Assembly (NCBI GenBank): GCA_934098345.1
Contig: CAKONX010000002.1
Span: forward strand, 1 to 39,706
DNA length: 39,706 nt
Direction: 5' to 3'
Source: an uncultured Bacilli bacterium
Lineage (GTDB): Bacteria; Bacillota_I; Bacilli_A; RF39; UBA660
Shown: positions 8,008 through 25,459 of the stretch, piece after piece
Position numbering within the stretch: position 1 is the first letter of the stretch
Layout of the letters: each line of letters begins with the position of its first letter
Program-made: the position numbers and the translations under genes
Notes under the pieces: generated by a model
The model's input: only the letters and a program-made list of their open reading frames with translations
What the model was told of the DNA's origin: nothing
The model's database searches: none

Positions 8008-8010
8008 TAT

Positions 8011-8883: not shown

Positions 8884-8907
8884 TTTATGAACACTTGAGT
8901 TTTTTAT
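8874..8907 (+). terminator. Intrinsic terminator after the parAB-tam41-like unit
   Basis: actcaagt (8874-8881) pairs with acttgagt (8893-8900), followed by tttttta. Overlaps the stop codon. Confidence 0.75.
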
Positions 8908-8940
8908 ATTAAGTAATGTATAATATAGATGGTGAATAAA

Positions 8941-9756: not shown

Positions 9757-9931
9757 TATTGGAAGTGTAGTAATAATGAAAAAAAATCACGCTTGTGGAG
9801 AAAATAAATGGGTTATTACTCGTAATGGTGTTGATATAAAAATTAAATGCTTAGGTTGTGGACATGAAGTTATGATGGATAGAATTGAATTTAAAAGAAA
9901 GTTGAAAGGTGTTATCGATGAAAAAGATTAG
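9740..9931 (+). CDS. DUF951 family small protein (YyzM-like)
   Basis: 63 aa with a CxxC...CxxC arrangement (HACGENKW, CLGCGHEV). This family typically lies near parB in Bacillota. Confidence 0.7.
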   Translation: MEKEFNIGSVVIMKKNHACGENKWVITRNGVDIKIKCLGCGHEVMMDRIEFKRKLKGVIDEKD

Positions 9932-11459
9932 AAAATTTCAAGAAAAAGTATTATTACACCCAATAATGGCATTCTTGTTAATGAGTGGTGTAGTAGTTTT
10001 ATTAAGTGGTATTTTAGATTTATTTGATGCATCTATAACATATAATAAAATAAATGTTAAAACTGGTAATTATGAATCAACGCTTGTAACAGTAGAGTCA
10101 CTTTTAAATTTAAGTGGAATTAAGTATATATTTTCAAATACGGTTTCATCATTTGTATCTTTTACTCCATTATCAATGTTATTAATTGTTTTAATTGGTA
10201 TTGGAATAATGGATAAAAGTGGATTTTTAGATACATTATTCTTTGTATTAACTAAAAATGTTTCTAAAACAACAGTTACTTTTGTACTTATGCTTATATG
10301 TGTACTTGCATCTTTAACTGGAGATTTGTGTTTTGTTGTAATAATTCCTTTAGCAGCTTTACTATTTAAATATGGTAAACGTAATCCAACAGTTGGAATT
10401 ATAAGTTCATTCGCAGCTTTATCTTTAGGTTATGGAATGAACTTTATGTTAAGTAGTGTTGGTTCGTCACTTGCAAGTTATACAGAGATGTCTGCTAATA
10501 CTATTTCATCTGGATATGTTATTTTTTCATTTTCATTCTTTATAATAATGATAGCAGCTATATTTATTGGAACAAGTTTACTTACATATGTTACTGAAAG
10601 AATAATAGCTCCTAAAATGGGTAAATATGAAGTTGAAGAAGAGATAGTTGATCCAAAAGAGAAACTAACTAAACGTGAAAAACGCGGATTATTTCTTGCT
10701 ATATTAGGTGGCGCGATATATTTAATAATATTTATTTATAATATTATTCCTTATGCTCCTTTAGGTGGAAACTTCTTGGATTATTCACAAGCTAGATATA
10801 TTGATAAATTATTTGGATATGATTCATTTTTCAACAGTGGTTTTGTATTTGTTGTTACTATTTTATTTTTCTTACTTGGTCTTTTATACGGACTTGGAAC
10901 AAAGAATATAAATAATCATCGTGATATATGTGACTTTTTATCACATTCACTTGATGGAATTGGAAAGATAATAGTTTTAATATTTTGTGCAAGCATGTTT
11001 ATTAGTTTACTTAAATATACAAATATAGGTGCTTTAGTAACAGCTGGACTTGCTAAGATTTTAAGTAATACAAATTTTGGTGGAGTACCTTTAATATTAC
11101 TTGTGTTCTTTATAAGTATGATTTCAGTTATATTACTACCATCATTTGTTAATAGATGGGCAATACTTTCTGGTACAGTTGTGCCAATGATGATGACTGC
11201 TGGATTTACACCAGAGTTTGCTCAATTAATATTTACAAGTGCTTCTAGTATAATGTATCCGTTAACGCCTGCAATGGCATATTTTGTAATCTATGTATCA
11301 TTCATGGAGAAATATGAAAAAGACGGAACTGGACTTGTAAAATCAACTAAGTATTTACTTCCTTATTCATTTGCAATTTTAGCTATGTGGATAGTATTAA
11401 TACTAATTTGGTATTTTGTTGGTATTCCTTTAGGAATAAATTCAAAAGTAATTTTATAA
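9918..11459 (+). CDS. AbgT-family transporter (p-aminobenzoyl-glutamate/antimetabolite exporter type)
   Basis: About 510-aa polytopic membrane protein. The N-terminal segment LLHPIMAFLL and the overall size and topology fit AbgT. ATG 9918 follows gaaaggtg; the track start is GTG 9909. Confidence 0.6.
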   Translation: MKKIRKFQEKVLLHPIMAFLLMSGVVVLLSGILDLFDASITYNKINVKTGNYESTLVTVESLLNLSGIKYIFSNTVSSFVSFTPLSMLLIVLIGIGIMDKSGFLDTLFFVLTKNVSKTTVTFVLMLICVLASLTGDLCFVVIIPLAALLFKYGKRNPTVGIISSFAALSLGYGMNFMLSSVGSSLASYTEMSANTISSGYVIFSFSFFIIMIAAIFIGTSLLTYVTERIIAPKMGKYEVEEEIVDPKEKLTKREKRGLFLAILGGAIYLIIFIYNIIPYAPLGGNFLDYSQARYIDKLFGYDSFFNSGFVFVVTILFFLLGLLYGLGTKNINNHRDICDFLSHSLDGIGKIIVLIFCASMFISLLKYTNIGALVTAGLAKILSNTNFGGVPLILLVFFISMISVILLPSFVNRWAILSGTVVPMMMTAGFTPEFAQLIFTSASSIMYPLTPAMAYFVIYVSFMEKYEKDGTGLVKSTKYLLPYSFAILAMWIVLILIWYFVGIPLGINSKVIL

Positions 11460-11524
11460 TAAATTAAAAAAAATAGTACAATTTATTTATATTATGATAT
11501 AATTTTATTTAGGAGGATATGGTA

Positions 11525-12190
11525 ATGAAAAAGTTTTTTAAAATTTTGATGGTTATGGTTTTGGTTGTATTTCCTGTTTTGACAGTTAATGCAAAGACTA
11601 CTAAGAAAGCAAGCAAAGACCCAATTAATTTTTATATATTTTATGGATCAACTTGTGGATATTGTCAAAAACTACATAATTATACTGCTGAATTAGAGAA
11701 AGATAAAACAATGAATTCTAAATTCCGTATAGTTGATTATGAAGTATGGGGAAACCAAGATAATAATAATTTAATGACTAAAGTTGGTACATACTTTAAT
11801 TTTGATGTTGATGGTGTTCCATTCTATGTAATTGGAGATCAATATTTTACAGGATTCTCAAGTGAAACTAGTCCTGAACAAATTGTTAAAGCTATCAATG
11901 AAGAATATGAAGACAAAGACTATGTTGATGTTGTAGCTGGTATTCAAAATGGAACTATTGAAGTTAAAGACAAAACTAGTAAAGATAATGGAACAACTAA
12001 GAAAAGTGATGTAGTTAGTTATATTGTTTTAGGTGTAACTGCTGCTATCGTTGTTGCTATTCTATTTGGAAGAAGATCAACAGGTGCTTATACTGAAGCA
12101 GAAAGTGAATCTGAAGAAGTAAAAGAAAAAACTTCAGAAAAAGAGAAAAAAACAGAAGCAAAAAAAGCGACAAAAAAGAGTAAAAAATAG
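11525..12190 (+). CDS. Secreted or membrane-anchored thioredoxin-fold protein (CGYC active site)
   Basis: Signal peptide, FYGSTCGYCQKLH CxxC motif, C-terminal TM helix and a K/E-rich tail. aggagga lies 7 nt upstream of ATG 11525. Confidence 0.65.
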   Translation: MKKFFKILMVMVLVVFPVLTVNAKTTKKASKDPINFYIFYGSTCGYCQKLHNYTAELEKDKTMNSKFRIVDYEVWGNQDNNNLMTKVGTYFNFDVDGVPFYVIGDQYFTGFSSETSPEQIVKAINEEYEDKDYVDVVAGIQNGTIEVKDKTSKDNGTTKKSDVVSYIVLGVTAAIVVAILFGRRSTGAYTEAESESEEVKEKTSEKEKKTEAKKATKKSKK

Positions 12191-12219
12191 ATTTAGAAAT
12201 TTCTAAATCTGTTTTTTTT
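12189..12219 (+). terminator. Intrinsic terminator
   Basis: agatttagaa pairs with ttctaaatct, followed by gtttttttt. Confidence 0.75.
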
Positions 12220-12298
12220 ATAATTCAAATGATATAATTAATATACAATGTGGAGATGATTTTGCTGGATGGCGACTGAGTAGTTTTAAAATTATATT

Positions 12299-12327
12299 GA
12301 TTTAGCAGTAGCTAAATCTTTTTTTTT
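12299..12327 (+). terminator. Terminator-like hairpin inside the mgtE leader region
   Basis: gatttagc (12299-12306), loop agta, gctaaatc (12311-12318), then nine T. It sits about 105 nt upstream of the mgtE start. Confidence 0.6.
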
Positions 12328-12374
12328 GAATAAATATATATTATAATTAGTTTATGACTTTTGGAGGTGATATT

Positions 12375-12434
12375 ATGGATTCGGATCCGAGTAGTAATAG
12401 GTTAAAAAATAATATCATTTTTTGGAGGTTATAA
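12375..12434 (+). CDS. Candidate 19-codon leader ORF (MDSDPSSNRLKNNIIFWRL) overlapping the mgtE start
   Basis: A strong SD (ggaggtga) lies 6-7 nt upstream of ATG 12375. The ORF reads through the mgtE SD, and its TAA (12432-12434) overlaps the mgtE ATG (12434-12436). There is no homology evidence. Confidence 0.25.
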   Translation: MDSDPSSNRLKNNIIFWRL

Positions 12435-13768
12435 TGTTAGAAAGAGTAAAAAAATTAATTGATTCTAAAAATGTTTTAGAATTAAAAAAAATTATTGACG
12501 AATTAAATGAAAATGATTTAGCTGAGTTATTGAGTGATTTATCATATGATGATTTAGCTAAAGTATTTAGAATAATTCCTAAGGATAAGGCTGTTGCTGT
12601 TTTTGCTGAATTTGACGTAGTTGTAGCTACTAATTTGTTAAGACAATTAAGTGAAAGTGAAACAGTTAATTTAATAGATGAAATGTATGCTGATGATGCT
12701 ACAGATATCTTGGAAGAAATGCCAGCAAATATTGTTGATAAGATTCTTAAAAACTGTAGTGATGAAACTAGAAAAGATATAAATAAATTACTAAAATACG
12801 AAGAAGATACAGCTGGTTCTATAATGACAGTTGAATATGTTGAATTTAAAGGACAAACAACTGTTAAAGAAGCTGTTTCTCAACTTGAAAATGAAATAAC
12901 TTACTTTGAAACTATCAATACTTGTTATGTAGTTGATCATAAAAGAAAATTATATGGTAGTATTGAAGCAACTGATTTACTTTTTGCAGATGAAAACGAC
13001 ACGATTAAAAATGTATGTAAAACTAATATAATTTATGTAAGTACATATACGGATCAGGAAGAAGTTGCTAATATGTTCCATAAATACAATTTGACTGTTA
13101 TGCCAGTTGTTGATTCTGAAGAAAGACTAGTTGGTATAATTACTATTGATGATGTTTTGGATGTTCTTGAAAGTGAAGCAACTGAAGATATTAAGAAAAT
13201 GGCGGCTATAATTCCAGTTGATAAACCTTATGATAAAACTGGAGTCTTTGAAACTTTTTTAGCAAGAATTCCATGGTTACTACTTCTTATGATTTCAGCT
13301 ACTTTTACTGGTAAAATAATTGAAAGCTTTGAATCTGCTTTATCAAAAATGACTATTTTAACAGCATTTATTCCAATGCTTATGGATACAGGTGGTAATG
13401 CTGGTGGCCAATCAAGTGTAAGTGTTATTCGTGCTTTATCTTTAAATGATATAAAATTTAAAGATATTTTTAAAGTTATGTTTAAAGAATTTAGAGTTTC
13501 TATTCTTTGTGCTGTTACTTTAGCAATATGCAATTATTTTAAATTATTAATTGTTGATCGTGTTAGTACAAGTGTTGCATTATGTGTATGTTTAACTTTA
13601 ATTGTAACAGTTATATTGGCTAAACTAATTGGATGTACATTACCTATGATTGCTAAAAAATTAGGATTTGATCCAGCTGTTATGGCAAGTCCATTTATCA
13701 CTACTATTGTTGATGCTTGTAGTCTAATTATTTATTTTAACTTTGCAACATTTATTTTAGGTTTATAA
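12434..13768 (+). CDS. mgtE: Magnesium transporter MgtE
   Basis: MgtE N domain, tandem CBS domains and a TM domain with PMLMDTGGNAGGQSS. ATG 12434 is preceded by ggagg; the track start TTG 12422 is unlikely. Confidence 0.95.
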   Translation: MLERVKKLIDSKNVLELKKIIDELNENDLAELLSDLSYDDLAKVFRIIPKDKAVAVFAEFDVVVATNLLRQLSESETVNLIDEMYADDATDILEEMPANIVDKILKNCSDETRKDINKLLKYEEDTAGSIMTVEYVEFKGQTTVKEAVSQLENEITYFETINTCYVVDHKRKLYGSIEATDLLFADENDTIKNVCKTNIIYVSTYTDQEEVANMFHKYNLTVMPVVDSEERLVGIITIDDVLDVLESEATEDIKKMAAIIPVDKPYDKTGVFETFLARIPWLLLLMISATFTGKIIESFESALSKMTILTAFIPMLMDTGGNAGGQSSVSVIRALSLNDIKFKDIFKVMFKEFRVSILCAVTLAICNYFKLLIVDRVSTSVALCVCLTLIVTVILAKLIGCTLPMIAKKLGFDPAVMASPFITTIVDACSLIIYFNFATFILGL

Positions 13769-13824
13769 TGTTTTTATTGATAAAAATTAGAAACTTATAT
13801 ATAATCAAAGTGTGAGGTAATTAT

Positions 13825-14952
13825 ATGAAAAAGGTGTCGTTGATTGTATCTATTGTAATATTTGCTTTTTCTTGTTTTCATGGATACAATTTGGTATTTG
13901 AGCATAAAGAAAATATAAGTGTTCCTGTATTTAATGAAGTAAAAGACAGTGTTACTAATATAAAATTTAATGTTGATACTTATTATTTAGCAGTTGGTGA
14001 AAAAGCTAAGCTTAATTATACAGTTGAAAGTAAAGATGATAATTACAAACTTACTTTAGAAAGTGAAAATAATGATGTTGTTTCTATAAATGAAGGATAT
14101 ATTGAAGGTGTTTCTTTAGGTACTTCAAAAGTTACTTTAAAAAGTGAGTCAGGTAAAAAAAGCGAAGTATTAGTTACTGTTACTGATTTAATTAGAAAAC
14201 CAGAACTTGATGATAAAAAGAGTTTTTTACCATGTCATGCTTATACTGATAAAGATGCTCATATTATTGATGAGGCATTAAGAACTAGAGTTTTAAATAA
14301 AGGTGAAGGAACACGTGCTGCTTTAATAGAAACAATTAGATTTATGACTTTATCATTTAAATATAAAGTATCTTATTTTTATGAAAATGGAAGAATGCAT
14401 GAATCTGGATTAAGAAAAGCAGATGGAGAAGGAAGATATTATCATAAAGGATTATATTTAAGTGAAGATAAATTTAAAGATATACAAGTTTCATATAAGG
14501 GACCAGCTATCTGGGGTTGTCCTTTAACAAACTTACAAGATCACAACAGATATAAACCTGGAGCTAAAATGCCAAATGGATTGGATTGTTCGGGATTTGT
14601 TACTTGGTCTTTATATAACTCCGGTTTAGATGTTGGTGATATTGGGGCAGGAATAAATGATAAATATAAAGATATGAGTGATGTTGGTGAAATGCATTCT
14701 CTTACTTATGAATATGCTAATTCTAATGATTATAAAGTGGGAGATATCATAGCTCGTTGGGGACATACAGCTCTTATTGCTGGAAAAGATTCTGAATATT
14801 TATATATTGCTGAATCACTTTTAAAAGGTGTTAGAATTGAAAAGATAAGTTATAAGAAATCAAACAGCGGTTTATATAAATATTATGCATATATAAATAA
14901 AATGGACAATGAATATAGTAAGAATGATGATTACACAGATATGTGGGAATAA
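13825..14952 (+). CDS. NlpC/P60-family peptidoglycan endopeptidase with an N-terminal anchor and a Big_2 Ig-like domain
   Basis: Big_2-like segment (YYLAVGEKAKLNYTV...GTSKVTLKS). Catalytic Cys context GLDCSGFVTWSLYNSG and His context GHTALIAG. Confidence 0.85.
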   Translation: MKKVSLIVSIVIFAFSCFHGYNLVFEHKENISVPVFNEVKDSVTNIKFNVDTYYLAVGEKAKLNYTVESKDDNYKLTLESENNDVVSINEGYIEGVSLGTSKVTLKSESGKKSEVLVTVTDLIRKPELDDKKSFLPCHAYTDKDAHIIDEALRTRVLNKGEGTRAALIETIRFMTLSFKYKVSYFYENGRMHESGLRKADGEGRYYHKGLYLSEDKFKDIQVSYKGPAIWGCPLTNLQDHNRYKPGAKMPNGLDCSGFVTWSLYNSGLDVGDIGAGINDKYKDMSDVGEMHSLTYEYANSNDYKVGDIIARWGHTALIAGKDSEYLYIAESLLKGVRIEKISYKKSNSGLYKYYAYINKMDNEYSKNDDYTDMWE

Positions 14953-15174
14953 GATCTTAGTTCTTATTTTTTTATATTTTCTATTAGCATAAGTAGGTAC
15001 ATATCTTGTTACTGAATTATTTATTCCTGTTTTATAATAATTTCTTTTTAATTCTCTAGAGATTGTAGAGACATTTCTATTTAAATGTTTAGCCATTTCT
15101 CTTAAACTCATGTTCATTTCTTTAAATTTACTTATACAAGCTCGTTCTTCTATGGTAAGATGTATATAGTTCAT
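14953..15174 (-). pseudogene. IS30-family transposase, N-terminal HTH fragment only (truncated remnant)
   Basis: LTIEERACISKF..MSLREMAKHLNRNVSTISRELKRN is the signature IS30 HTH start. Homology lasts about 70 aa and there is no DDE domain. The rest of the track ORF (14872-14952) is read-through antisense to the NlpC/P60 gene. Confidence 0.75.
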
Positions 15175-15347
15175 ATTTATTACTCCTTAATGTTTGATTA
15201 GACACCAACATTATATCATGAGTAATAATATGAACTTTTTTATTGAGTTAATTATATGTTGCACTTGTTATTATAAATTATCTTGCAAAAAAAGTATTTT
15301 TAATAACATTTTTTTTCTATATTCATAAACTAATATAGGTGATTATA

Positions 15348-15632
15348 ATGAGCAAGAAAATAGTCATAGATCCTGGCCATGGTGGAACTGATAGTGGTGC
15401 TAGTGGAAATGATATAATTGAAAAAAATATGACTTTAGCTATTAGTAGAATAATGTATGATGAATTAAAAAGACTTGGTATTCCTGTATATATTACGAGG
15501 GAAACGGATGAAACTTTGAGTCCAACTCAAAGAATCAATAGAATTAAAAATGCATTTGGAAGTGATGATAATGTTATTGTTATATCTAATCACATAAATG
15601 CAGGAGGTCGAGCAGTTACATTGTTAATCTAA
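15348..15632 (+). pseudogene. N-acetylmuramoyl-L-alanine amidase (Amidase_3), 5' fragment of a gene split by an insertion
   Basis: IVIDPGHGGTDSGA...ISNHINAGG is the N-terminal half of the Amidase_3 fold. Homology stops at 15608 (..AGG), followed by 7 unrelated codons and a stop. The matching continuation AEGAEVIY lies at 24704. Confidence 0.85.
15604..15608. repeat. Left copy of the 5-bp direct repeat gaggt at the element junction (candidate attL core)
   Basis: gcaggaGGTcgag (left) versus actgaGGTgctg (right). gaggt is present at both breakpoints of the amidase reading frame. Confidence 0.5.
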
Positions 15633-15712
15633 ATAAGTTAAAAAGTTAATATTTAATATAAATTGTACAAATTTAAAAAGTGTATCTAATATCTATTAAA
15701 AAAAGGCAAGTC

Positions 15713-15722
15713 ATGATATAAT
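15713..15722 (+). promoter_or_regulatory. Candidate extended -10 promoter (TGaTATAAT) for the defence operon
   Basis: tgatataat lies at 15713-15722, about 33 nt upstream of the dcm ATG. No good -35 was found. Confidence 0.35.
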
Positions 15723-15754
15723 TATCATAGTAAAATGTCTTAAAGGTGATTATT

Positions 15755-16972
15755 ATGAAGTATATAGATTTATTTTGTGGAATTGGAGGTTTTCATCAAG
15801 GAATAGAAAGAATTTTCCCTGATTCTAAATGCATTTTTGCGTCTGATTTTGATTTTCCAGTGTCTGAGGTTTATAAAAATACTTATGGTATTGATTGTTA
15901 CAATAACATCAAATTGGAAGAAACACATAGAAAGTTAGAGCAAAAAGTTGTTGAAAACGGGGGTGGTTTTGATGTACTTTTTGCAGGTTTTCCTTGTCAA
16001 TCTTTTTCTAAGGCTGGAAATCAACTAGGATTCAAAGACACTAATAAGGGAATACTTTTTTTTCAAGTGGCAGATATATTAGAAAAATATCATCCAAAAT
16101 TTGCAATTTTAGAAAATGTTAGAAATCTTGTTTCACATGATAAAGGTAAAACTTGGTTGAGAATAAAGGCGGAATTAGAACGTATAGGTTATGTTGTTGA
16201 TAAACATATGATTAGTCCACATTATTTAGGTATTCCACAATTAAGGGAAAGGATTTTTATTGTTTGTATATATGATCCAAATCACAAAATTGATAAAATT
16301 AATATTAAATGGCCTGAGAAAAAAAATTTAAATACATACAATTTTGAAGGAAAAAGCATAAATGAATACTTGGACAAAAACGTTGATGCTAAATATTATA
16401 TAGATAATGAAAAGATAAAAATAATTAATATATGGGAAGAATTACGTGTTTCAATAAAGTGTAATGGCGGCAATTTTATTTCTCCAATTTGGTTATATTA
16501 TTTAAATGATAAACCAATTCCTAAAAGTTATCCTGAGTGGAAGAAAAAACTTATTAAAAAAAATAAAAACTTTTATTTTGAAAATAGAGAAATAATTGAT
16601 GCTTGGAAGGAAAAATATGATTCATTAAAATTTACTGCTAGGTCTAATAGAAAATTTGAATGGAATGCTAATACTTCTATTGACAGTGTATGGGATGGGA
16701 TTATTCAATTTAGACCTTCTGGTATACGAGTAAAAAATAATAAATGTTTCCCAACATTTGTTGCTATTAATCAGACACCTATTATAGGTAAATATAAAAG
16801 ATATATTACACCTTTGGAAATTTCAAGACTATATGGATTTAATAATTTGATTTTGAATAAAAATGATGATCAACAGTCATATAAACAATTAGGCAATACA
16901 GTTTGCGTTGATATTGTTGCTTATGTGATAAATGAATTTATAAATAATTATAATGATGGGGGAGAAGTATGA
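15755..16972 (+). CDS. dcm: DNA (cytosine-5)-methyltransferase
   Basis: Motif I DLFCGIGGF, motif IV GFPCQSFSKAG, motif VI ILENVRNL, motif X YKQLGNTVCV. ATG 15755 follows aaaggtga. Confidence 0.95.
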   Translation: MKYIDLFCGIGGFHQGIERIFPDSKCIFASDFDFPVSEVYKNTYGIDCYNNIKLEETHRKLEQKVVENGGGFDVLFAGFPCQSFSKAGNQLGFKDTNKGILFFQVADILEKYHPKFAILENVRNLVSHDKGKTWLRIKAELERIGYVVDKHMISPHYLGIPQLRERIFIVCIYDPNHKIDKINIKWPEKKNLNTYNFEGKSINEYLDKNVDAKYYIDNEKIKIINIWEELRVSIKCNGGNFISPIWLYYLNDKPIPKSYPEWKKKLIKKNKNFYFENREIIDAWKEKYDSLKFTARSNRKFEWNANTSIDSVWDGIIQFRPSGIRVKNNKCFPTFVAINQTPIIGKYKRYITPLEISRLYGFNNLILNKNDDQQSYKQLGNTVCVDIVAYVINEFINNYNDGGEV

Positions 16973-18486
16973 TGGAACAAATTGATATTACACCATCTAC
17001 GGGGGTATATGGTACATATAAAAGATTAAGTTATAAACCATGGTATGCAATTGCAGAGTTTGTAGATAATTCTACGCAAAGTTATTATGATCATAAAGAA
17101 GAATTAAAATCACAAGAAGGATTCAAAAAATTATATATAAATATAAATTATAGTTTAGAAAATGATTTTTTAGAGATTACAGATACTGCTTATGGTATGG
17201 ATTTTTATGATTTTAAAAGAGCATTAATACTTGATAAACCGCCAAAAAATAATACGGGAAGAAATGAGTTTGGTATGGGTTTAAAAACTGCTGCTTGCTG
17301 GTTTGGTAATTTATGGTCTGTCGAAACTACAAGATTAGGTTCAAATGAAAAATTTAAAGCTACTATAGATGTTTTTGATTTACAAGAAAATAATACTAGT
17401 AATATAGATTATTCAACAAGTTATGTTGATGAAAAAGAGCATTATACAAGAATTTATATTACTGGTCTTAACCAAAAAATGGTAAAGAAAACACTATCAA
17501 GAATTAAAGAACAATTGTCCAGTATTTATAGAAACGATATACGAAATGGTGAAATAGAGATTATCTGGAATGGTGAGTCTTTGGTTTACACTGATCCTAG
17601 TATTCTTGTCGAATCGTTAGAAGATGGCTCTTTTATAGAGTGGAAAAAGAATATAGATTTTGATGTAATTTCATCTAATGGTAAAAAATATTCTGTTGAT
17701 GGTTGGATTGGAATAATGGATCCAGGAAGTACTAGTAATGCAGGATTTACGCTTATGCGTAGAGGTAGAGTTATTATTGGTGGGCCTGGTGAAAACTACA
17801 GACCTGATGAAATATTTGGAAAGTCAAATTCGTTTACTTATCAGAGATTATTTGGAGAAATTAATTTAGATAATTGGGAGGTTACACAAGCAAAAGATGG
17901 ATTTGATTGGAATAATGGTTTAGAAGAATTATTAATTGAAAATTTACTTCGTGTATCTAGTGAATTTAGGTATAAAGCCGAAAATTATAGAAAAAATTTG
18001 AGTAAAAAAATAGCTGATATAACTGAAGAAGAAAAAAGTGATATTGTATCTGAAACAGTTAATAATATAACGTCTGCTATTTATGAAATAAATGAAGAAC
18101 CTATAATATATGACCATGTAAATAAGGTGGAGACAATTTCAGCCTTAGAAATTCCTGAAGAAAAAACTCAAGAAATGTACTCATATTCTGTTGATGATTA
18201 TGATTTAACAGTTAAATGGTATAGCGATAACGAAAATGGAGCATGGATTACTACAAAGGAATTATCAGATAATAGGATAGAAATATCTTTAAATATACGT
18301 CATGCATTTTTTGTACCATATATCAATGATACTAATTTTTTGAAAATTATGAATAAATTAGCTTGCGCTATGATTATAGCAGAAAGAAATGCAAAAAAGG
18401 TTTCAAAAAATCCAGATGGTTCTGTTGATCCTTCAGATATTAGAACCTATATGAATAAACTATTAGATAAATTATCAAAAAAATGA
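16969..18486 (+). CDS. GHKL-superfamily ATPase (HATPase_c_3 / MutL-MORC-like)
   Basis: N box AEFVDNS, G1 box ITDTAYGM, G2 box NEFGMGLKTA. The start overlaps the dcm stop (ATGA). Confidence 0.85.
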   Translation: MMEQIDITPSTGVYGTYKRLSYKPWYAIAEFVDNSTQSYYDHKEELKSQEGFKKLYININYSLENDFLEITDTAYGMDFYDFKRALILDKPPKNNTGRNEFGMGLKTAACWFGNLWSVETTRLGSNEKFKATIDVFDLQENNTSNIDYSTSYVDEKEHYTRIYITGLNQKMVKKTLSRIKEQLSSIYRNDIRNGEIEIIWNGESLVYTDPSILVESLEDGSFIEWKKNIDFDVISSNGKKYSVDGWIGIMDPGSTSNAGFTLMRRGRVIIGGPGENYRPDEIFGKSNSFTYQRLFGEINLDNWEVTQAKDGFDWNNGLEELLIENLLRVSSEFRYKAENYRKNLSKKIADITEEEKSDIVSETVNNITSAIYEINEEPIIYDHVNKVETISALEIPEEKTQEMYSYSVDDYDLTVKWYSDNENGAWITTKELSDNRIEISLNIRHAFFVPYINDTNFLKIMNKLACAMIIAERNAKKVSKNPDGSVDPSDIRTYMNKLLDKLSKK

Positions 18487-18494
18487 GGTGAATT

Positions 18495-20636
18495 ATGAGA
18501 AAAGGAATCGTCGAATTATGTGAAGAAAATAATTGTTTTGATAATTGGGAAGTATATTTAGACGGGAAAGAAACATCACGTATTAAGAAAAATTTGAATT
18601 ATATGTCAGAAGATGAAAAATTTGAAACGATTTTGACTGCAGCAAAAATTTTATCTAATTGTCCGAGTCCGAATTCTAGTGGCGGAAAGAAAACAGGATT
18701 AGCAATTGGTAAAATTCAAAGTGGTAAAACTTCTAATTTTATTTCATTAATGGCTTTAGCGTTTGATAACAATTATAATATAATCGTTGTATTTGGAGGA
18801 ACAAAAAATAACTTATTATCTCAAACCGAGGAAAGAATAAGAAAAATGTTTGATATTGATAATAATAAACGAGATGATAGAGATGTTGTTGTTTTAAGTA
18901 CTACTAATAAATTTGATTCTATAAGTCCTGAGCAATTGAATAGGATGTATAATAGCGGTAGAAAAATAATAATAGTCGCTTTAAAACATCAAAAACATAT
19001 TAAGAATGTTAAGTCATATATTACAGATGCAAATTTGGATAAAAAACCAATATTGTTAATAGACGATGAAGGCGATCAAGCTTCGTTAAATGCAAAAGTT
19101 GTACATAACGAAAAAACAGTTATATATAATGAATTGTTGCAATTAAAAGAGAGCTTAAATCATGTTTGTTTTATTTCAATTACTGCTACTCCACAAGCTA
19201 ATTTGCTAATTGATACTATAGATAGTTTATCTCCAGATTTTTGCCAATTAGTTGAGCCCGGAAAAGAATATACCGGTGGATCTATGTTTCATGGAGATAA
19301 CCAAGATTTTTACGTTATTGAATTACCTGAAGATGAAACCGAGATGTTAGAAGGAGATGGTGTTCCTGAATCATTCTATAATTCTTTAGGAGTGTTTTTT
19401 GTTGGGAGTATTATCAGAAAATTTAGAAATGATGGTAAAAATCATGTCATGTTAATTCATCCTAGCCAAAAGAAATTTGATCACAAAGAGGTAGAAAAAA
19501 AGGTAAATTTAATACTTGAAAATTGGCTAAATAGTTCTGAACAAGATCATTCAGAAAATGGCTATCAAAAACTGAGTGAATATTTAAAATATGGTTATGA
19601 TGAATTATCACGAACTGTTGATGATATGCCAGAATTCCAATTGATTTTAGATAATATAAATGATCAATTAAATGATTCACGTGTTCTTGTAGTAAACAGT
19701 GATAAAAATACAGATATAGATTACTATAAGACACGAAATATTATTATTGTTGGAGGTAATTTAGTAGAACGTGGGTTAACAATTAATGATTTGGCTGTTA
19801 CCTACATCGTTAGAAGAAGTAAATCAAGAGCGAATGCTGATGTAGTAGAACAGAGAGCTAGATGGTTTGGATATAGAAAAAAATATTTTGACTTGTGTAG
19901 GGTTTATTGTACTAAACAAATTAAGGAAGACTTTTCTAATCTTTTAAGTCACGAAGATGATATATGGGGTTGGATTAAGTATTGTAAAAAAAATAACATC
20001 AGAATAAAAGACATGCCAAGATTGTTTGAACTTGATAATAATTTAAATCCTACAAGAAAGGCTGTTGTTCCTAATGTAGATGAAATAAAATTTGGTATAT
20101 GGACTGAACAAAAAAAGATTAATATTAATAAAAATTATTTACTAGAATTAGATAATGCTTGGAATGATTTATTATCAAAATATGAATATAATGATGTAAC
20201 ATATGGTAATTTAACGCATAGAAAATATATTAAAATTCCATTATCAGATATTAATGCTATTATTTCTAAGTATTATATTAATGATATAGGATTTAATTAT
20301 AAATATCCATATGCTGTTGAGCAAAGGAATATACAAGATGGCGCTAATCCTTGTGTTACAGTTCTTAAGATGAGAATTAAAAGTGGAGAAGAGCGTAGTT
20401 TTGATGACAATAATTCAATAACATCAAATCTTATGCAAGGACATTCACAAAATAGATATATCAGTGATCCATTATATTATCCTGGTGATAGATATATATG
20501 TTTGAATGAAACACAATTGCAAATCCATTTAGTTCATCCTAGAATTAAGGATACTGTTTTGAGCGATATAATAATACCTATGATAGCATTTTATTCTCCT
20601 GTTACAAATGCAAAAAGAATTATTGGGAGGTTGTGA
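18495..20636 (+). CDS. Z1 domain-containing P-loop NTPase (helicase-like)
   Basis: Walker A GKIQSGKTSN, Walker B LLIDDEGDQAS, TAT-type motif ISITATPQAN, and the Z1-typical VEQRARWFGYRKKY. gaggtga RBS; 8-nt gap after the GHKL gene. Confidence 0.85.
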   Translation: MRKGIVELCEENNCFDNWEVYLDGKETSRIKKNLNYMSEDEKFETILTAAKILSNCPSPNSSGGKKTGLAIGKIQSGKTSNFISLMALAFDNNYNIIVVFGGTKNNLLSQTEERIRKMFDIDNNKRDDRDVVVLSTTNKFDSISPEQLNRMYNSGRKIIIVALKHQKHIKNVKSYITDANLDKKPILLIDDEGDQASLNAKVVHNEKTVIYNELLQLKESLNHVCFISITATPQANLLIDTIDSLSPDFCQLVEPGKEYTGGSMFHGDNQDFYVIELPEDETEMLEGDGVPESFYNSLGVFFVGSIIRKFRNDGKNHVMLIHPSQKKFDHKEVEKKVNLILENWLNSSEQDHSENGYQKLSEYLKYGYDELSRTVDDMPEFQLILDNINDQLNDSRVLVVNSDKNTDIDYYKTRNIIIVGGNLVERGLTINDLAVTYIVRRSKSRANADVVEQRARWFGYRKKYFDLCRVYCTKQIKEDFSNLLSHEDDIWGWIKYCKKNNIRIKDMPRLFELDNNLNPTRKAVVPNVDEIKFGIWTEQKKININKNYLLELDNAWNDLLSKYEYNDVTYGNLTHRKYIKIPLSDINAIISKYYINDIGFNYKYPYAVEQRNIQDGANPCVTVLKMRIKSGEERSFDDNNSITSNLMQGHSQNRYISDPLYYPGDRYICLNETQLQIHLVHPRIKDTVLSDIIIPMIAFYSPVTNAKRIIGRL

Positions 20637-20637
20637 A

Positions 20638-21573
20638 ATGATTGATAATATTATTGATTTTTTAAAAACAAAATATGATGGAGAAGGATATTTTGCACAA
20701 GAATTTGAAAACGAAATATTTTTTGGTATTGATAAAAATGAAAATATAATATGTTTAAAAAAAGTTTATGATCAGTTGGAAATGACTAAAATAAAAACTA
20801 ATTATTTAGAATTATTTCAAAATACCAAAGTTACATTAAATTTAGAAAGTGAATCAATTACTGATTATTTTAATGTAATAATATGTAGTAGACAAGAAAA
20901 AGAAAATATTGAAACTTTTGTTAGATTGTGTCTTTGTTATTTAACTGATAATGATAATAGTGAAATGTTGAATTTAATGAGAAATTTAATTGAATTATTT
21001 CAAATAACTTCTACTAAAAACACAGAATATGAAAAAGGTTTATGGGGTGAATTGTTTACTATATATTATTTGAAAGATAAATATGATGTTGATATTTCAT
21101 CTTATTGGCATAATGATTTCTTTTTGAAATATGATTTTTCATTGAATGATCAAACTAAAATAGAGGTAAAAACAACTTCAAATGTTGCTAGAATTCATAG
21201 AGTTAATCATGAACAAGTATTTACAAACAATGATGTTATTTTATCATCTGTTATGGTTCGTAAAGATGATAATGGATTAACGGTGTTTGACTTATTCTCA
21301 AAAGTAAAAGACTTATTTACAGGTGACTATAATAAAATAGTTGAATATGAAAAAATGCTTCGAAAGGTAAAAGAGGATGAAGCGGAAAAATTTGAATTAA
21401 ATTATTCTTATACACACATTAAATTATTTAAAGTTGATTCTATACCAAAGTTTGAAATGAAAGAACCAGAAGGTGTATATCGCACAGAATATGATATTGA
21501 CTTATCAAATATAAATGCATTGAATGATTGCGAAATAAAAAATTTTTTTAATAAGGTATTTGAAAATGAATAA
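20638..21573 (+). CDS. PD-(D/E)XK motif protein (DUF4420-like putative nuclease)
   Basis: GLWGELFTIYYL...YWHNDFFLKYDF...KIEVKTTS gives a D...ExK core. ATG 20638 lies 1 nt after the Z1 stop with a gggagg RBS. The track start at 20608 overlaps Z1 and is unlikely. Confidence 0.75.
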   Translation: MIDNIIDFLKTKYDGEGYFAQEFENEIFFGIDKNENIICLKKVYDQLEMTKIKTNYLELFQNTKVTLNLESESITDYFNVIICSRQEKENIETFVRLCLCYLTDNDNSEMLNLMRNLIELFQITSTKNTEYEKGLWGELFTIYYLKDKYDVDISSYWHNDFFLKYDFSLNDQTKIEVKTTSNVARIHRVNHEQVFTNNDVILSSVMVRKDDNGLTVFDLFSKVKDLFTGDYNKIVEYEKMLRKVKEDEAEKFELNYSYTHIKLFKVDSIPKFEMKEPEGVYRTEYDIDLSNINALNDCEIKNFFNKVFENE

Positions 21574-22795
21574 AAATAAATTTGAAGACATTGTGAGTGG
21601 TAAAATCTCATCTCTGTTTGTGGATGCCATTTATGAAAATAAAAAGCCGTATATTAATAAAAGTTGCGAAGTTCTTTCAAAATTAATGAAGGTTAAAAAT
21701 GGTGGGGGATTTAGACCAATAGGGCAATGGAAAAATGTATTTGATGTTAAATATGTTGTATTATATTCAACTAATGAAGATATTTATTGGCAGGATGTAT
21801 TAGATGAAGAATTTGGAATGTATACATATTTTGGGGATAATCAAACAGCTGGTAGAGAATTGCATGATACAAATTTAGGTGGAAACGTAATCTTGCGTGA
21901 ATCATTCAATTATGCTATGTCTGATAATATTTATGATAGGAAGAAGATTCCACCATTTTTTCTGTTTGAAAAAACTGAGACGGGGGATATTAAATTTTCT
22001 GGTTTGTTAGTTCCAGGCTATAAAGGCATAAATTCTAAGGAATGGCTTACAGCGCTTTGGGCTAAAAGAAATGAGGGCGGTAGATTTCAAAATTATAAAG
22101 CTATATTTACAGTTCTTAATACAGATTCTGGTTCATTAAATAAACCAAATGATTCGTATATTGATTTAAGATGGCTTGATGATTTAAAAATTGGCAAAGG
22201 ATATGATAGTGTATATGCACCAACGTCTTGGAAAAAATTTATTGATTCAGGATTATATACCCCACTTACTGTTAGTGTTGAAAAACAAATAAGAACTAAA
22301 AATGAACAGTTGCCAAATAGTAAATATAAAATGGAAATGTTAGATATAATAATAAATTATTTTCGGGATTATCCATATTTATTTGAAGAATTTGCAATAT
22401 TAATAACTACTTTGTCAGATTCAAATATTATTAATTGTCAAAACACACGTCCTTCTAAAGATGGAGGAAGAGATGGTATTGGCGAATATAGAATTTTAAA
22501 TAATTTATCTGTTGGTTTGAAAACTACTTTTGCACTTGAGGCTAAATGTTATAGTTTATCAAATTCAGTTGGTGTTAAAGAAACGTCACGTTTAATTTCA
22601 AGAATTAAGCATAGGGAGTTTGGAGTTTTTGTTACTACATCATATGTGGCCAATCAAGCTTATGAAGAAATTGTCGAAGATAATCATCCTATTGCTATTA
22701 TTTCTGGTGCGGATATAATTGATATTTTATATAAAAATGATGTAACAGATAAAGATGAATTAATAAAGTTTTTAATAAGCAATTTTCATAAATAA
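21566..22795 (+). CDS. Two-domain restriction endonuclease: N-terminal SRA/PUA-like putative modified-base reader plus C-terminal Mrr-type PD-(D/E)XK nuclease
   Basis: The C-terminus (SKDGGRDGIGEY...FALEAKCYS...FGVFVTTSYVANQAYEEI...IAIISGADIIDIL) matches the Mrr catalytic domain pattern. The N-terminus (YVVLYSTNEDIYWQD...YTYFGDNQTAGRELHDTNLGGNVIL...PPFFLFEK) resembles the YxG/Q-L-x-GN-x-L blocks of SRA domains. The start overlaps the previous gene by 8 nt (ATGAATAA). Confidence 0.7.
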   Translation: MNKNKFEDIVSGKISSLFVDAIYENKKPYINKSCEVLSKLMKVKNGGGFRPIGQWKNVFDVKYVVLYSTNEDIYWQDVLDEEFGMYTYFGDNQTAGRELHDTNLGGNVILRESFNYAMSDNIYDRKKIPPFFLFEKTETGDIKFSGLLVPGYKGINSKEWLTALWAKRNEGGRFQNYKAIFTVLNTDSGSLNKPNDSYIDLRWLDDLKIGKGYDSVYAPTSWKKFIDSGLYTPLTVSVEKQIRTKNEQLPNSKYKMEMLDIIINYFRDYPYLFEEFAILITTLSDSNIINCQNTRPSKDGGRDGIGEYRILNNLSVGLKTTFALEAKCYSLSNSVGVKETSRLISRIKHREFGVFVTTSYVANQAYEEIVEDNHPIAIISGADIIDILYKNDVTDKDELIKFLISNFHK

Positions 22796-22819
22796 AGTTC
22801 ATTATGTTTTTGTTTGAAG

Positions 22820-22850
22820 CATACCTTTAAAATAGGAGGTATGTTTTTTT
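22820..22850 (+). terminator. Intrinsic terminator ending the five-gene operon
   Basis: catacct (22820-22826) pairs with aggtatg (22837-22843), followed by seven T. Confidence 0.7.
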
Positions 22851-22970
22851 ATGCCAAAAAATAAAAAAATAGTGTATTCGGAAGATAGATTTAATAAAGA
22901 GAAAAATATAAAAGATATTTTAATAGAATTTTTAATAAAAAAATTAAATGATGATCAGATTTCTTTTTAG
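22851..22970 (+). CDS. Candidate 39-aa ORF (MPKNKKIVYSEDRFNKEKNIKDILIEFLIKKLNDDQISF) upstream of the recombinase
   Basis: An open frame with an aggagg about 11 nt upstream, embedded in the terminator stem. No homology was recognised. Confidence 0.25.
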   Translation: MPKNKKIVYSEDRFNKEKNIKDILIEFLIKKLNDDQISF

Positions 22971-23057
22971 ATGATTTGTTTTTTTTGAAAAATGATGATA
23001 ACATCAAATTGTCTTAGAAAGGAATCTAGTGAATTAAAAAAATAAGAAGGAGGAAAA

Positions 23058-24659
23058 ATGTATAATAATTTACTAGAAAATTATGAGTATAAAGCAGGAA
23101 TATATATAAGATTATCTCAAGAAGACCGAGATAAAAAATATGAGTCTGAAAGTGAAAGTGTAATTAATCAAAGGGATATTTTAATGAGTTACATTAAAAA
23201 TAATGGTTTTGCTTTTGTGGAAGAGTATGTAGATGATGGATACTCTGGAACTAACTTTGATAGACCAGCTTTTCAAAAGATGATAAAGGATATTCATACT
23301 AAAAAAATAAATTTAGTTATTGTTAAAGATTTATCAAGGTTGGGTAGGGATCATGTTAATACAGGATATTTTATGGAGAGATTTTTTCCGGAGAATAGAG
23401 TTAGGTTTATTTCAATTATGGAAAGTTATGATAGTGCTAAAATTCAAGCTTGTAATGATTCTTCAACTTTTATAGTTGCTTGTAATGATTATTATAGTAA
23501 ACAAAATTCTAATAAGATAAGAGATGTTTTACGTTCAAAAAAAGTTCAAGGTAAGTATATAGGAAGTGTTCCATGTTATGGATATATGAGAGATCTAGAA
23601 GATAAAGGACATTTAGTACCAGATCCTAATACAGCACCAATAGTAAAAGATATATTTAGTTGGTTTATATCTGGAATGAGTATTTCGGATATAGCATCAG
23701 TATTAAATAGTAGAGGAATTTTAACTCCTAGTGCTTATAAAAAAATAAATTTAAGTAGTGATGATAGAAGATTAAATGAATGGTGTTCTACTTCAATAAG
23801 GAAGATATTAACTAATAGAATGTATACTGGTGATATGGTACAAAATACTCAAACTAAAGTTAATTATAAAAGTAAGAAAAGAATTAATCTTGATAAAAGT
23901 TTATGGATTATAGTTGAAAATACTCACGAGCCATTAGTAGATAGGCACGTTTTTGAAACAATTCAAAAAAATAGATTAGTAATACCTAAAACAAAAACAT
24001 ATAGAGAAAAAAGATTATTTGAAAATTTATTGTTTTGTAAAGAATGTGGTAATTATTTAAGTATAAGTCATAAAAAGAAATATGATTATTGGACTATAAA
24101 TTGCAATAAATATGCCAGGGATCCTAAAAAACATAGATGTGAATCTCATTTTATGCCTTATGATGAATTGGAAAAATCTTTATTGAACCGTATAAAATCT
24201 ACTGTTTCTATATATATTAAAAACATATCAATTGAAGATATAAATAAAAAATTGATTAAACAGGGTGAACTATTAGAGACAAATAAGAATAACGATTTAA
24301 TAAGATTAAATAAAGAAAAAGAAAAACATATGAAGAAATTAGATATATTAATATGTGAAATGTCAGATAAAATAGACAAAGATACATTGAGCGGATTAAT
24401 TAGAGCAGAAGATAAAGCATTATTAGATGTTGTAAAAAAAATAAAAGAATTAGAAAATAAGAAAGATAATTCTAAGGAACAAATAGAAAAACTTCCTGAT
24501 TATACAAAAACAATAAAAAAATTTTTAGATATTAATAATCCGAGTAGAGATTTATTGTTTGCTTTAATAGATAGGATTGAAATAGATAAAGATAGAAATA
24601 TACAAATTACATATAAGTTTAATCTTATAGATGAAGATAAGTATGAATATAATAAATAA
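23058..24659 (+). CDS. Large serine recombinase (resolvase/invertase N-domain, recombinase domain, zinc ribbon, coiled coil)
   Basis: Catalytic Ser context GIYIRLSQED, then YVDDGYSGTNFDRPAF and VKDLSRLGRD. Recombinase domain (GSVPCYGY...), Cys cluster CKECGNYL...CNKY...C, and a long K/E-rich coiled coil. aaggagga RBS. Confidence 0.93.
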   Translation: MYNNLLENYEYKAGIYIRLSQEDRDKKYESESESVINQRDILMSYIKNNGFAFVEEYVDDGYSGTNFDRPAFQKMIKDIHTKKINLVIVKDLSRLGRDHVNTGYFMERFFPENRVRFISIMESYDSAKIQACNDSSTFIVACNDYYSKQNSNKIRDVLRSKKVQGKYIGSVPCYGYMRDLEDKGHLVPDPNTAPIVKDIFSWFISGMSISDIASVLNSRGILTPSAYKKINLSSDDRRLNEWCSTSIRKILTNRMYTGDMVQNTQTKVNYKSKKRINLDKSLWIIVENTHEPLVDRHVFETIQKNRLVIPKTKTYREKRLFENLLFCKECGNYLSISHKKKYDYWTINCNKYARDPKKHRCESHFMPYDELEKSLLNRIKSTVSIYIKNISIEDINKKLIKQGELLETNKNNDLIRLNKEKEKHMKKLDILICEMSDKIDKDTLSGLIRAEDKALLDVVKKIKELENKKDNSKEQIEKLPDYTKTIKKFLDINNPSRDLLFALIDRIEIDKDRNIQITYKFNLIDEDKYEYNK

Positions 24660-24698
24660 TATTTTTTTTAATTCAGTTGCTACGTATTTTTTGTGACT

Positions 24699-24703
24699 GA
24701 GGT
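24699..24703. repeat. Right copy of the 5-bp direct repeat gaggt (candidate attR core)
   Basis: It sits 40 nt after the recombinase stop. The amidase frame resumes immediately (ggt gct gaa ggt gct gaa gta = GAEGAEV). Confidence 0.5.
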
Positions 24704-25459
24704 GCTGAAGGTGCTGAAGTAATTTATGCATTAAGAAATAATGAAACTCTATCTTCTAAAGTATTAAATGAACTTGCAAAAAATGGACAAATAATTAGAA
24801 AATATTATCAAAAAAGAGGTACAACAAATCCTAATAAAGATTATTACTTTATGTTAAGAGATACAGCTCCTTATGAATCAATAATAGTTGAATATGGTTT
24901 TTTAGATAATGTAGAAGATGCTGCTAGATTAAAGAAAAATTATGAACGTTATGCATATGCAACATTAGAAGCACTTTTAGATTACATGGGTTATTCAAAA
25001 GATGATTTGGATTATTATACAGTTAAATCAGGAGATACATTATATTCGATTGCTAAAAAATATGGAATAAGTGTTGATAAGTTAAAAGATTTGAACAATT
25101 TAAAATCAAACATGATTTCAGTTAATCAAAAACTATTAGTTAATGATCAAAAGAAAAATCAAGATACAAATGCATATATAGTTGAAAAAGGAGATACACT
25201 TTATTCAATAGCTAAAAAGTATAATACAACTGTAAATAAAATAAAAGAGTTAAATAATTTAAAAAGTGATACTTTATCTATTGGTCAAGAAATTACTATA
25301 CCAAGTAGCTTTGATGTTAAAACACATATAGTTAAATCAGGAGATACATTATACTCAATAGCAAGAATGTATAATACAACAGTAAATGCAATTAAGGTAG
25401 CTAATAATTTAAATAGCGATATTTTAAGTATAGGAAAAGAATTAATAATACCAGTATAA
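24701..25459 (+). pseudogene. N-acetylmuramoyl-L-alanine amidase, 3' fragment (rest of Amidase_3 plus three LysM domains)
   Basis: The frame is open from 24701: GAEGAEVIYALRN...DYYFMLRDT...VEYGFLDN completes Amidase_3. Three LysM repeats follow (Y/HxVKSGDTLYSIAKKY...LSIGQ). The track only reports from the internal Met at 24851. Confidence 0.85.

Follow-up and report, generated by a model that had tools for sequence, protein, structure and literature searches.

Iyer, Abhiman and Aravind (2008) described operons in which the gene for a MORC/paraMORC GHKL ATPase adjoins genes for a superfamily II (SFII) helicase with the C-terminal motif DThhQXuRhFG, a restriction-endonuclease (RE) fold protein with an E-D-ExK signature and a cytosine methylase, often accompanied by Vsr or AIPR. 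These operons were predicted to be restriction-modification (R-M) systems with the GHKL protein looping DNA, and the same core was later found again by machine learning and termed a putative defence system (Miller et al. 2022). A second group of relevant enzymes is the MspJI family of 5-methylcytosine (5mC)-dependent nucleases. Zheng et al. (2010) reported that about half of the MspJI relatives adjoin a gene for a 5mC methyltransferase (MTase), an association that they called unusual and left unexplained. Herein, we analyzed a 39,706-nt stretch of DNA from an uncultured Bacilli bacterium (the window; positions 1 to 39,706 of contig CAKONX010000002.1, assembly GCA_934098345.1), in which five genes at positions 15755 to 22795 bring the two together: a C5-MTase, a GHKL ATPase, a Z1-domain ATPase and a DUF4420 protein are followed by an AspBHI-type nuclease. 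This operon probably combines two separable restriction modules under a single promoter and within a single mobile cassette. In the literature, we found no description of an AspBHI-type gene joined to a Z1 operon, though the combination is present in public genomes. Our search likewise yielded no biochemical work on the GHKL-Z1-DUF4420 arm after the 2008 prediction, and nothing on this operon type in the literature on MORC and phage defence since 2020.

Domains were assigned with Pfam, system models were taken from PADLOC and equivalog cut-offs from NCBIfam, and solved structures were sought in the PDB by sequence and by profile. The operon lies on the forward strand. Its first gene, g1 (15755..16972), encodes a C5 cytosine DNA MTase of 405 aa (PF00145 2e-58, TIGR00675 9e-62), and the second, g2 (16969..18486), a GHKL (MORC/paraMORC-type) ATPase of 505 aa (HATPase_c_3 1.6e-13). 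The third, g3 (18495..20636), encodes a 713-aa superfamily 2 (SF2, DEAD-like) ATPase with a Z1 domain (Z1 1.4e-44, ResIII 1e-4), g4 (20638..21573) a 311-aa predicted PD-(D/E)XK nuclease (DUF4420 9e-17), and g5 (21566..22795) a 409-aa 5mC-dependent restriction endonuclease of the MspJI/AspBHI family (RE_AspBHI_N 1.4e-46, Mrr_cat 1.9e-13). An earlier note, made from the sequence of the window, had described five co-directional genes at spacings of -4, +8, +1 and -8 nt. Re-reading of the coordinates and junctions confirmed this: g1 and g2 overlap by 4 nt (ATGA), 8 nt separate g2 from g3 and 1 nt separates g3 from g4, and g4 and g5 overlap by 8 nt. Independent gene calls on metagenome contigs gave the identical five proteins (405, 505, 713, 311 and 409 aa), and the tight spacing was kept in same-order operons of other taxa, with gaps of -8 to +45 nt. 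Shine-Dalgarno-like sites precede all five genes (AGGTGA for g1, GGGGGAG for g2, GAGGTGA for g3 and GGGAGG for g4), and that of g5 (AAGGT) is the weakest.

The first four genes match the operon type of Iyer et al. feature by feature, including the C-terminal motif of the helicase and the E-D-ExK protein. Those operons usually carry Vsr and/or AIPR, whereas the operon in the window has neither and ends in an AspBHI-type enzyme. The catalytic motifs, which the earlier note had judged to be intact, proved to be conserved, invariant or nearly so, in the homologue alignments. In g2, the Bergerat-fold motifs were invariant in the alignment (A4): E30/N34, D72xAxG76 and G102-K106, corresponding to the N, G1 and G2 boxes. 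Likewise, GxxQSGKT (72-79), DDEGD (190-194), TATP (230-233) and QxxRWFGY (453-460) were invariant in the alignment of g3. The C-terminal motif of g3 reads D449-VVE-Q453-RA-R456-WFG (DVVEQRARWFG), with Q, R, W, F, G and Y invariant, and the protein matches the PADLOC model 'Type II helicase domain protein' at 1e-64. E138, D166 and E176-x-K178 of g4 were invariant in 31 sequences.

The catalytic half of g1 matches M.HhaI (1e-33), the target-recognition half had no match among solved MTases, and the whole protein is 30-47% identical to the MTases of other Z1 clusters. Two routes to its target site were tried and abandoned. MTases linked to Sau3AI/MutH-like enzymes beside g5 homologues were close to g1 in an iterated profile, but they are only ~24% identical to g1, and the site was therefore not inferred from them; counts of candidate sites in 40 kb of DNA with 25% GC were uninformative. 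Neither sequence nor profile searches of the PDB found a solved relative of g2, g3 or g4, and no chain matched g3 or its profile. An AlphaFold2 (AF2) model of g4 (predicted local distance difference test score, pLDDT, 92; predicted template modeling score, pTM, 0.87) comprises a beta-rich domain at the N terminus and a core with the motif residues, together with a helical linker. A Foldseek comparison of this model with the PDB gave no match at E <= 1e-3 (best TM 0.10) and thus did not confirm an RE fold, so the PD-(D/E)XK assignment of g4 rests on the Pfam match and the conserved motif. PDB profile and fold searches identified no sequence-recognition domain in g2, g3 or g4.

Two tested systems are the nearest to these four genes. 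The earlier note had linked the neighbourhood to the phage-defence system Mza. This system (mzaABCDE, which the one paper found to tabulate it lists among the systems of a single earlier study) shares with the window a MutL-like GHKL ATPase, a Z1 protein and a DUF4420-type protein, but the link did not survive comparison with the models. Against NCBIfam, g3 scored 120 bits for MzaC (cut-off 1500) and g4 scored 29.6 for MzaD (cut-off 420). The PADLOC MzaC model matched g3 only at 2e-26 over residues 375-484; there was no PADLOC match for g2 or g4, and no MzaB match for g2. Furthermore, the operon is without AIPR (MzaE) and MzaA, no AIPR or sigma-factor-like gene is present in the cassette, and the Z1 proteins sampled from AIPR-linked clusters are ~900 aa long as against 713 aa for g3. 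The other system, the ATP-dependent Type II R-M enzymes CglI and NgoAVII, is the sole biochemical precedent that we found for a Z1 protein: the Z1 ATPase subunit is required for cleavage and works with a nuclease of the phospholipase D (PLD) family. Like the window, it combines a C5-MTase with a DEAD-Z1 ATPase subunit, and g3 has the Z1 and ResIII domains and Walker A/B motifs. In contrast, the R protein of CglI/NgoAVII is a PLD-family protein with a B3-like DNA-binding domain and there is no GHKL protein, whereas the nuclease candidates of the window operon are DUF4420 and Mrr_cat; PDB searches with g3 and with its profile gave no sequence-level match.

The last gene had been noted as that of an 'SRA-like/Mrr' modification-reader nuclease. 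By sequence, g5 is a full-length member of the MspJI/AspBHI family (MspJI, AspBHI, LpnPI, FspEI, RlaI and SgrTI; Type IIM/IV), which is solved and biochemically characterized. Residues 33-229 match RE_AspBHI_N (PF18062, 1.4e-46), the N-terminal SRA-like 5mC-binding domain, and the Mrr-type catalytic domain follows as in the rest of the family. The PADLOC model mREase_II (Type II methyl-directed restriction enzymes) was matched at 8e-127 over positions 12-391 of a 393-position profile. In the PDB, the best match was AspBHI (4oc8, 1.6e-74, residues 16-391), followed by LpnPI (6.8e-32) and MspJI (6.2e-18); judged by eye and not computed, about half of the residues are identical to AspBHI over the aligned region. 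D77 of g5 corresponds to AspBHI D71, the pocket residue that holds the flipped 5mC, and was invariant in 16 homologues. The catalytic motif D303-X21-E325-A-K327 aligns with DX20EAK of AspBHI and is one residue longer. Mutagenesis has shown that Ser41 and Arg42 of AspBHI tune its sequence context, and these residues are replaced by Lys and Asn in g5, so the sequence context of g5 probably differs from that of AspBHI. AspBHI is a homotetramer that is active alone in vitro, and g5 carries no extra domain relative to AspBHI or to its stand-alone relatives. From the homology with AspBHI and MspJI, g5 is expected to require 5mC or 5-hydroxymethylcytosine (5hmC) and to cleave at a fixed distance from it. 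Like about half of the family, g5 is clustered with a C5-MTase gene; it differs in being the last cistron of a Z1/GHKL operon and not the neighbour of a classical Type II system.

Natural null alleles of g5 were also found. A run of five G at 21982..21986 is reduced to four in loci L172-L174 (around position 7980 there), which represent at least 24 contigs. This one-base deletion breaks g5 into parts of 147 and 263 aa but leaves g1-g4 intact, and the element is otherwise 99.4% identical to that of the window. In L007, g5 has an in-frame stop. The G5/G4 run could reflect no more than loss of function, or it could serve as a crude on/off switch.

To see how often the combination recurs, one genome per species was scanned for relatives of g5, which gave 279, and the best 79 loci were examined after annotation with iterated profiles seeded from the genes of the window, a neighbourhood being taken as within 8.5 kb. 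A Z1 gene was near the g5 relative in 17 of the 79 loci, all of g1-g4 in 13 and a C5-MTase in 46, while 29 had neither an MTase nor any relative of g2-g4. The exact order g1-g2-g3-g4-g5 was present in seven of these loci and in one further contig, L171. L007 and L012 belong to the element family of the window; the others are L024 (Pseudobutyrivibrio), L025 and L028 (Lachnospiraceae), L027 (Clostridia) and L031 (Treponema). In L171 an additional MTaX1 gene stands upstream and the g4/g5 overlap is again 8 nt. The g5 proteins of the same-order operons in Lachnospiraceae, Clostridia, Treponema and the further contig are 45-59% identical to that of the window. Other arrangements exist: L017 has the circular permutation g5-g1-g2-g3-g4, and in L026 two other genes separate g5 from the g1-g4 set downstream of it. 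Overall, the composite was present in Lachnospiraceae, other Clostridia, Treponema, Erysipelotrichaceae, Anaeroplasma, Myxococcus and Microbacterium. The divergence of g5 is not congruent with that of g3 (identities of 54% for g5 and 23% for g3 in L013; 47% and 36% in L024). The architecture that the earlier note did not recognize as described recurs in several taxa, and the linkage of an MTase with an MspJI-family gene was already in Zheng et al. (2010).

Relatives of g5 are also found beside other systems. Elsewhere the neighbouring C5-MTase is partnered by a classical restriction enzyme of the Sau3AI/MutH-like or NgoMIV-like type: pairs with the former adjoin g5 relatives in L008, L009 and L029, and the MspJI orthologue in M. 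phlei adjoins Vsr, a C5-MTase and an NgoMIV-like enzyme. The helicases near the latter orthologue were considered as Z1 proteins and rejected, and the Tessaracoccus orthologue of MspJI had no MTase nearby. In L020, L022 and L041, the g5 relative stands in a Z1 cluster that contains AIPR; in L054 it adjoins a GmrSD-like gene, and still other relatives adjoin other GHKL proteins. Z1 clusters are therefore one of several kinds of C5-MTase system to which AspBHI-type genes attach, which agrees with Zheng et al. (2010).

The reverse survey started from g3. At least 583 metagenome relatives were obtained in one scan, and in the best 80 loci the order MTase-GHKL-Z1-DUF4420 was nearly universal, with the C5-MTase as the first gene in nearly all. 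The claim that these three genes recur next to cytosine MTases is thus borne out, and this gene order, together with the proposal of Iyer et al. (2008), supports the view of an R-M-like system with a GHKL/Z1/PD-(D/E)XK restriction arm. The earlier note had also supposed that g5 replaces a usual AIPR gene, and had proposed counting AIPR against SRA-Mrr in the fifth position around Z1 homologues. Among 42 genes tested directly downstream of g4, AIPR accounted for 15, MTaX1 for 9 and the rest were assorted; elsewhere a fifth gene was absent. No AspBHI-like gene was found in any of the 80 loci. AIPR is therefore a frequent occupant, as supposed, but the idea of a replacement holds only in part, since the slot is variable and an AspBHI-like gene and AIPR occur together in L020, L022 and L041. 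We conclude from the downstream genes that the fifth position is a variable accessory slot, of which AspBHI-type genes are a minority occupant.

Given this distribution, it seems likely that the operon comprises two arms. In the first (g1-g4), the C5-MTase would mark a host site, and unmarked DNA would be attacked by an NTP-driven complex of three proteins. The roles of g2-g4 in this scheme are taken from homology, the CglI precedent and the 2008 proposal: the Z1 SF2 ATPase would be a translocating motor, like the H/N subunit in CglI/NgoAVII; the GHKL ATPase would act as an ATP-operated dimerizing clamp or looping factor; and the DUF4420 protein would supply the E-D-ExK nuclease site, while its N-terminal beta-rich domain may recognize the target. 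The second arm (g5) would be a self-sufficient AspBHI-type enzyme, a homotetramer by homology with AspBHI and MspJI, into whose SRA-like pocket 5mC or 5hmC would be flipped before cleavage at a fixed distance. It would have to act in sequence contexts that g1 does not create. If g5 is so restricted, the second arm would catch DNA that escapes the first because it carries foreign cytosine methylation or hydroxymethylation. Linkage would keep a compatible MTase and a 5mC-dependent nuclease together in horizontal transfer, and a 9.1-kb large-serine-recombinase cassette would move the whole set, integrating at the NAGG codons of an Amidase_3/LysM gene. In this scheme, the blocking of the first arm by methylation, the independence of the two arms and their specificities are all inferred; the identities of the domains, the intact motifs, the structure and recurrence of the operon, the modular distribution and the limits of the cassette are observed. 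Since the modules appear to be separable and yet their linkage is clearly non-random, as indicated by the same five-gene order in several lineages and the MTase adjacency reported by Zheng et al. (2010), functional complementarity combined with co-transfer is the most economical reading.

Several points weigh against this interpretation. The nearest tested systems are distant, namely Mza and CglI/NgoAVII, the latter having a PLD nuclease and not DUF4420. The compatibility of the g1 target with the g5 context is assumed. M.MspJI, the MTase beside the founding member of the family, was inactive when tested, and hence an MTase beside an MspJI-type enzyme need not be functional. The frameshift in g5 lies at a short homopolymer, where sequencing or assembly bias could contribute, though many independent samples show it. 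Finally, the conserved 8-nt g4/g5 overlap and the repeated same order could reflect a physical partnership.

The last point leads to the view that the five proteins form one integrated machine, in which the AspBHI-like protein, as the DNA sensor or the nuclease subunit, is loaded, moved or activated by the Z1 motor and the GHKL clamp, so that unmodified and foreign-modified DNA alike would be inspected by one ATP-driven machine. The 8-nt overlap recurs not only in L007 but also in L171, which is 40-59% diverged; the same five-gene order is present in at least four lineages; a Z1 gene near 17 of 79 g5-type loci is far above chance for a rare gene family; and such a machine would suit the proteins of the first arm, in which no sequence-recognition domain was identified. 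Even so, we consider it unlikely. The 80 Z1 clusters contained no g5 homologue, and 62 of the 79 g5 homologues have no Z1 gene nearby. Two separable modules are favored because g5 changes its position (after g4, before g1, or after AIPR and an MTase), its divergence is uncoupled from that of g3, it has gained no domain, enzymes of the AspBHI family act alone as tetramers, and g5-null alleles persist with g1-g4 intact. The narrower proposal that an AspBHI-type gene placed after GHKL/Z1/DUF4420 marks a physical partnership, with one ATP-driven motor complex serving two opposite sensors, for 'no mark' and for 'wrong mark', appears quite improbable to us.

It is also unlikely, in our judgment, that the two systems are unrelated neighbours in a compact cargo, or that g2-g4 are not a restriction arm but an abortive-infection or repair-type system for which methylation is a signal. 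Defence genes do cluster and cassettes are compacted, and the same amidase hotspot holds other recombinase-linked R-M cassettes. No solved relatives of g2-g4 were found in the PDB, and AIPR, whose name refers to abortive infection, is frequent in related Z1 clusters. Against this view, the order recurs across phyla with overlapping or nearly abutting genes. A C5-MTase comes first in nearly all Z1 clusters, and classical R-M systems likewise pair a C5-MTase with a restriction enzyme; in addition, CglI/NgoAVII set a precedent for a Z1 ATPase as a genuine subunit of a restriction enzyme.

A third view, that g1 and g5 form a 'mark-then-cut' or addiction pair regulated by g2-g4, with g1 methylating incoming DNA (or, upon some trigger, the chromosome) for cleavage by g5, or with the pair enforcing retention of the cassette, can draw on the MTase as the common partner of both modules (46 of 79 g5-type loci), on the 'unusual' and unexplained association in Zheng et al. 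(2010) and on the documented killing of cells by the methyl-specific nuclease McrBC after new methylation, but it is very unlikely. If g5 cut DNA methylated by g1, constitutive production of the two from a single operon would be lethal to the host. LpnPI coexists with a linked and active MTase, the sites of which it is thought to leave uncut. Moreover, many g5 homologues lack a neighbouring MTase, and the Lys/Asn replacement of Ser41/Arg42 fits family members with sequence contexts of their own.

Every part of the operon can be assigned to a known family; its core had been predicted in 2008, and the linkage of an MTase with an MspJI-family gene had been reported in 2010. The operon is accordingly a useful model and not a new kind of system: it brings no new principle, and a specialist would recognize each part. 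Its value lies in two questions. The GHKL-Z1-DUF4420 arm is widespread, as the number of its metagenome relatives indicates, and is related to the eukaryotic MORC ATPases; the reason why MspJI-family nucleases adjoin C5-MTases has been unexplained since 2010. The cassette offers a compact test bed for both, with 7 kb, one promoter, no other cargo and a natural g5-null allele for comparison. Should the physical partnership prove true, the operon would be a restriction machine that reads the epigenetic state of DNA in both directions, and the association of MspJI-family enzymes with C5-MTases would be explained.

The operon is carried by a serine-recombinase cassette of 9,095 bp (15609..24703, forward strand), which contains the five genes, a 39-aa open reading frame (ORF; 22851..22970) and a recombinase gene (23058..24659) only. 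The cassette interrupts an amidase gene. On the left, an Amidase_3 N-terminal fragment (15339..15608; profile positions 1-78 of 174, 5.7e-19) ends at the GAGGT crossover core attL (15604..15608). On the right, the second GAGGT core, attR, lies at 24699..24703; identity between element copies ends at GTGACTGAGGT and the host flanks diverge beyond. The C-terminal part of the amidase gene follows (24704..25459), in which the frame resumes as AEGAEVIYALRNN and which encodes the C-terminal end of Amidase_3 and three LysM repeats (LysM 8e-54). At the left junction, comparison of the window with L001, L002, L005 and L012 showed flanks that diverge up to GCAGGAGGT and sequences that are nearly identical from CGAGCAG on. 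The insertion point falls in the codons for the conserved NAGG motif of the Amidase_3/LysM gene, and the predicted attB site is AATGCAGGAGGT joined to GCTGAAGGTGC. In five different host contexts, copies of the cassette are 97.3-99.4% identical over the full length, and L007 holds a variant of 80% identity. Copies that are 97-99% identical at the same position in clearly divergent amidase genes indicate that the cassette spread recently between hosts, and such near-identical copies in several host backgrounds suggest that it was recently acquired and is probably still functional. An empty attB site was not found in the window or in 171 loci, the left-end sequence had no match in viral contigs, and the repeats inside the cassette were only chance matches typical of AT-rich DNA.

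L012, whose cassette is 97% identical, is a species-representative contig labeled Bacteroidaceae. Its cassette has 26% GC and interrupts a Firmicute-type amidase gene, which suggests that the contig was mis-binned.

The recombinase is a large serine recombinase of 533 aa with Resolvase, Recombinase and Zn_ribbon_recom domains. It resembles CcrB (4.5e-29) and XisF (9e-27), both below the equivalog cut-offs. The 39-aa ORF upstream of it was called as a gene on metagenome contigs, and a 51-aa version in L007 shows conservation at the protein level. A related arrangement is known from gin, a non-phage intervening element in gerE of B. cereus that carries R-M genes, in which the 42-aa GirX is the directionality factor working with the serine recombinase GirC. 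By analogy with GirX, the 39-aa ORF is a candidate recombination directionality factor.

The cassette has the general features of gin and skin elements: it is a non-phage element with a short core repeat that splits a coding sequence, it has a large serine recombinase and a tiny ORF, and its cargo is an R-M system. It differs in its target, an amidase/LysM gene and not a proven sporulation gene, and in its size (9.1 kb with a single operon as cargo, compared with 28.6 kb for gin). By this analogy, the cassette may, with low probability, be a gin/skin-like element that is excised during sporulation, in which case the defence operon would be an insert that development can remove from a cell-wall amidase gene. 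No sporulation genes were found in the flanks of the window itself, which hold pheT, AbgT, MgtE, an LCP protein, a glycosyltransferase and a U32 peptidase. In one host (L172, 291-871), yabP and a yabQ-sized gene, both sporulation genes, lie directly upstream of the interrupted amidase gene, which is a hint of gin- or skin-like behaviour.

Other recombinase-linked R-M cassettes adjoin this one at the same locus in L001 (1-4100) and L005 (14000-20400). One has Bro-N and a DpnII/MboI-type gene; another combines DpnII with a PycTM protein, two MTases and a second serine recombinase. This suggests that the amidase locus is a hotspot at which serine-recombinase defence cassettes accumulate in tandem.

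The control regions of the operon were examined as well. The promoter that had been placed at 15713-15722 corresponds to a perfect match to an extended -10 element, TGATATAAT, read from the sequence at 15714..15722 and retained, with at most one mismatch, in other element copies. A consensus scan of the region gave 69 promoter-like sites compared with 77 expected from shuffled sequences, so that in this AT-rich DNA TGATATAAT is a candidate only and has no statistical weight. Transcription of the operon by read-through from the interrupted amidase gene is possible. As for the terminator put at 22820-22850, the consensus scan of the region reported none, while a separate RNA fold gave a candidate intrinsic terminator at 22816..22850, a 13-bp hairpin followed by U7 (-14.7 kcal/mol, z = -3.06), which is kept in the 80% variant L007. 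This candidate overlaps the Shine-Dalgarno sequence of the 39-aa ORF, whose AGGAGG lies in the 3' arm of the hairpin.

Two further observations were made in passing. In Proteobacteria, AspBHI-like genes adjoin a different HATPase_c_3 protein (L056, L077 and L085, around 7900-15300; also L046, L055, L069, L073 and L074). These proteins are larger (630-780 aa), and some stand with a C5-MTase and others among ORFs of 1000-1400 aa, a further case in which a GHKL protein and a 5mC-dependent nuclease repeatedly occur together. In the window, a 100-aa ORF on the reverse strand (14872-15174), just upstream of the amidase gene, is similar, as judged by eye, to the helix-turn-helix part at the N terminus of an IS30-type transposase and is probably the remnant of an insertion sequence.

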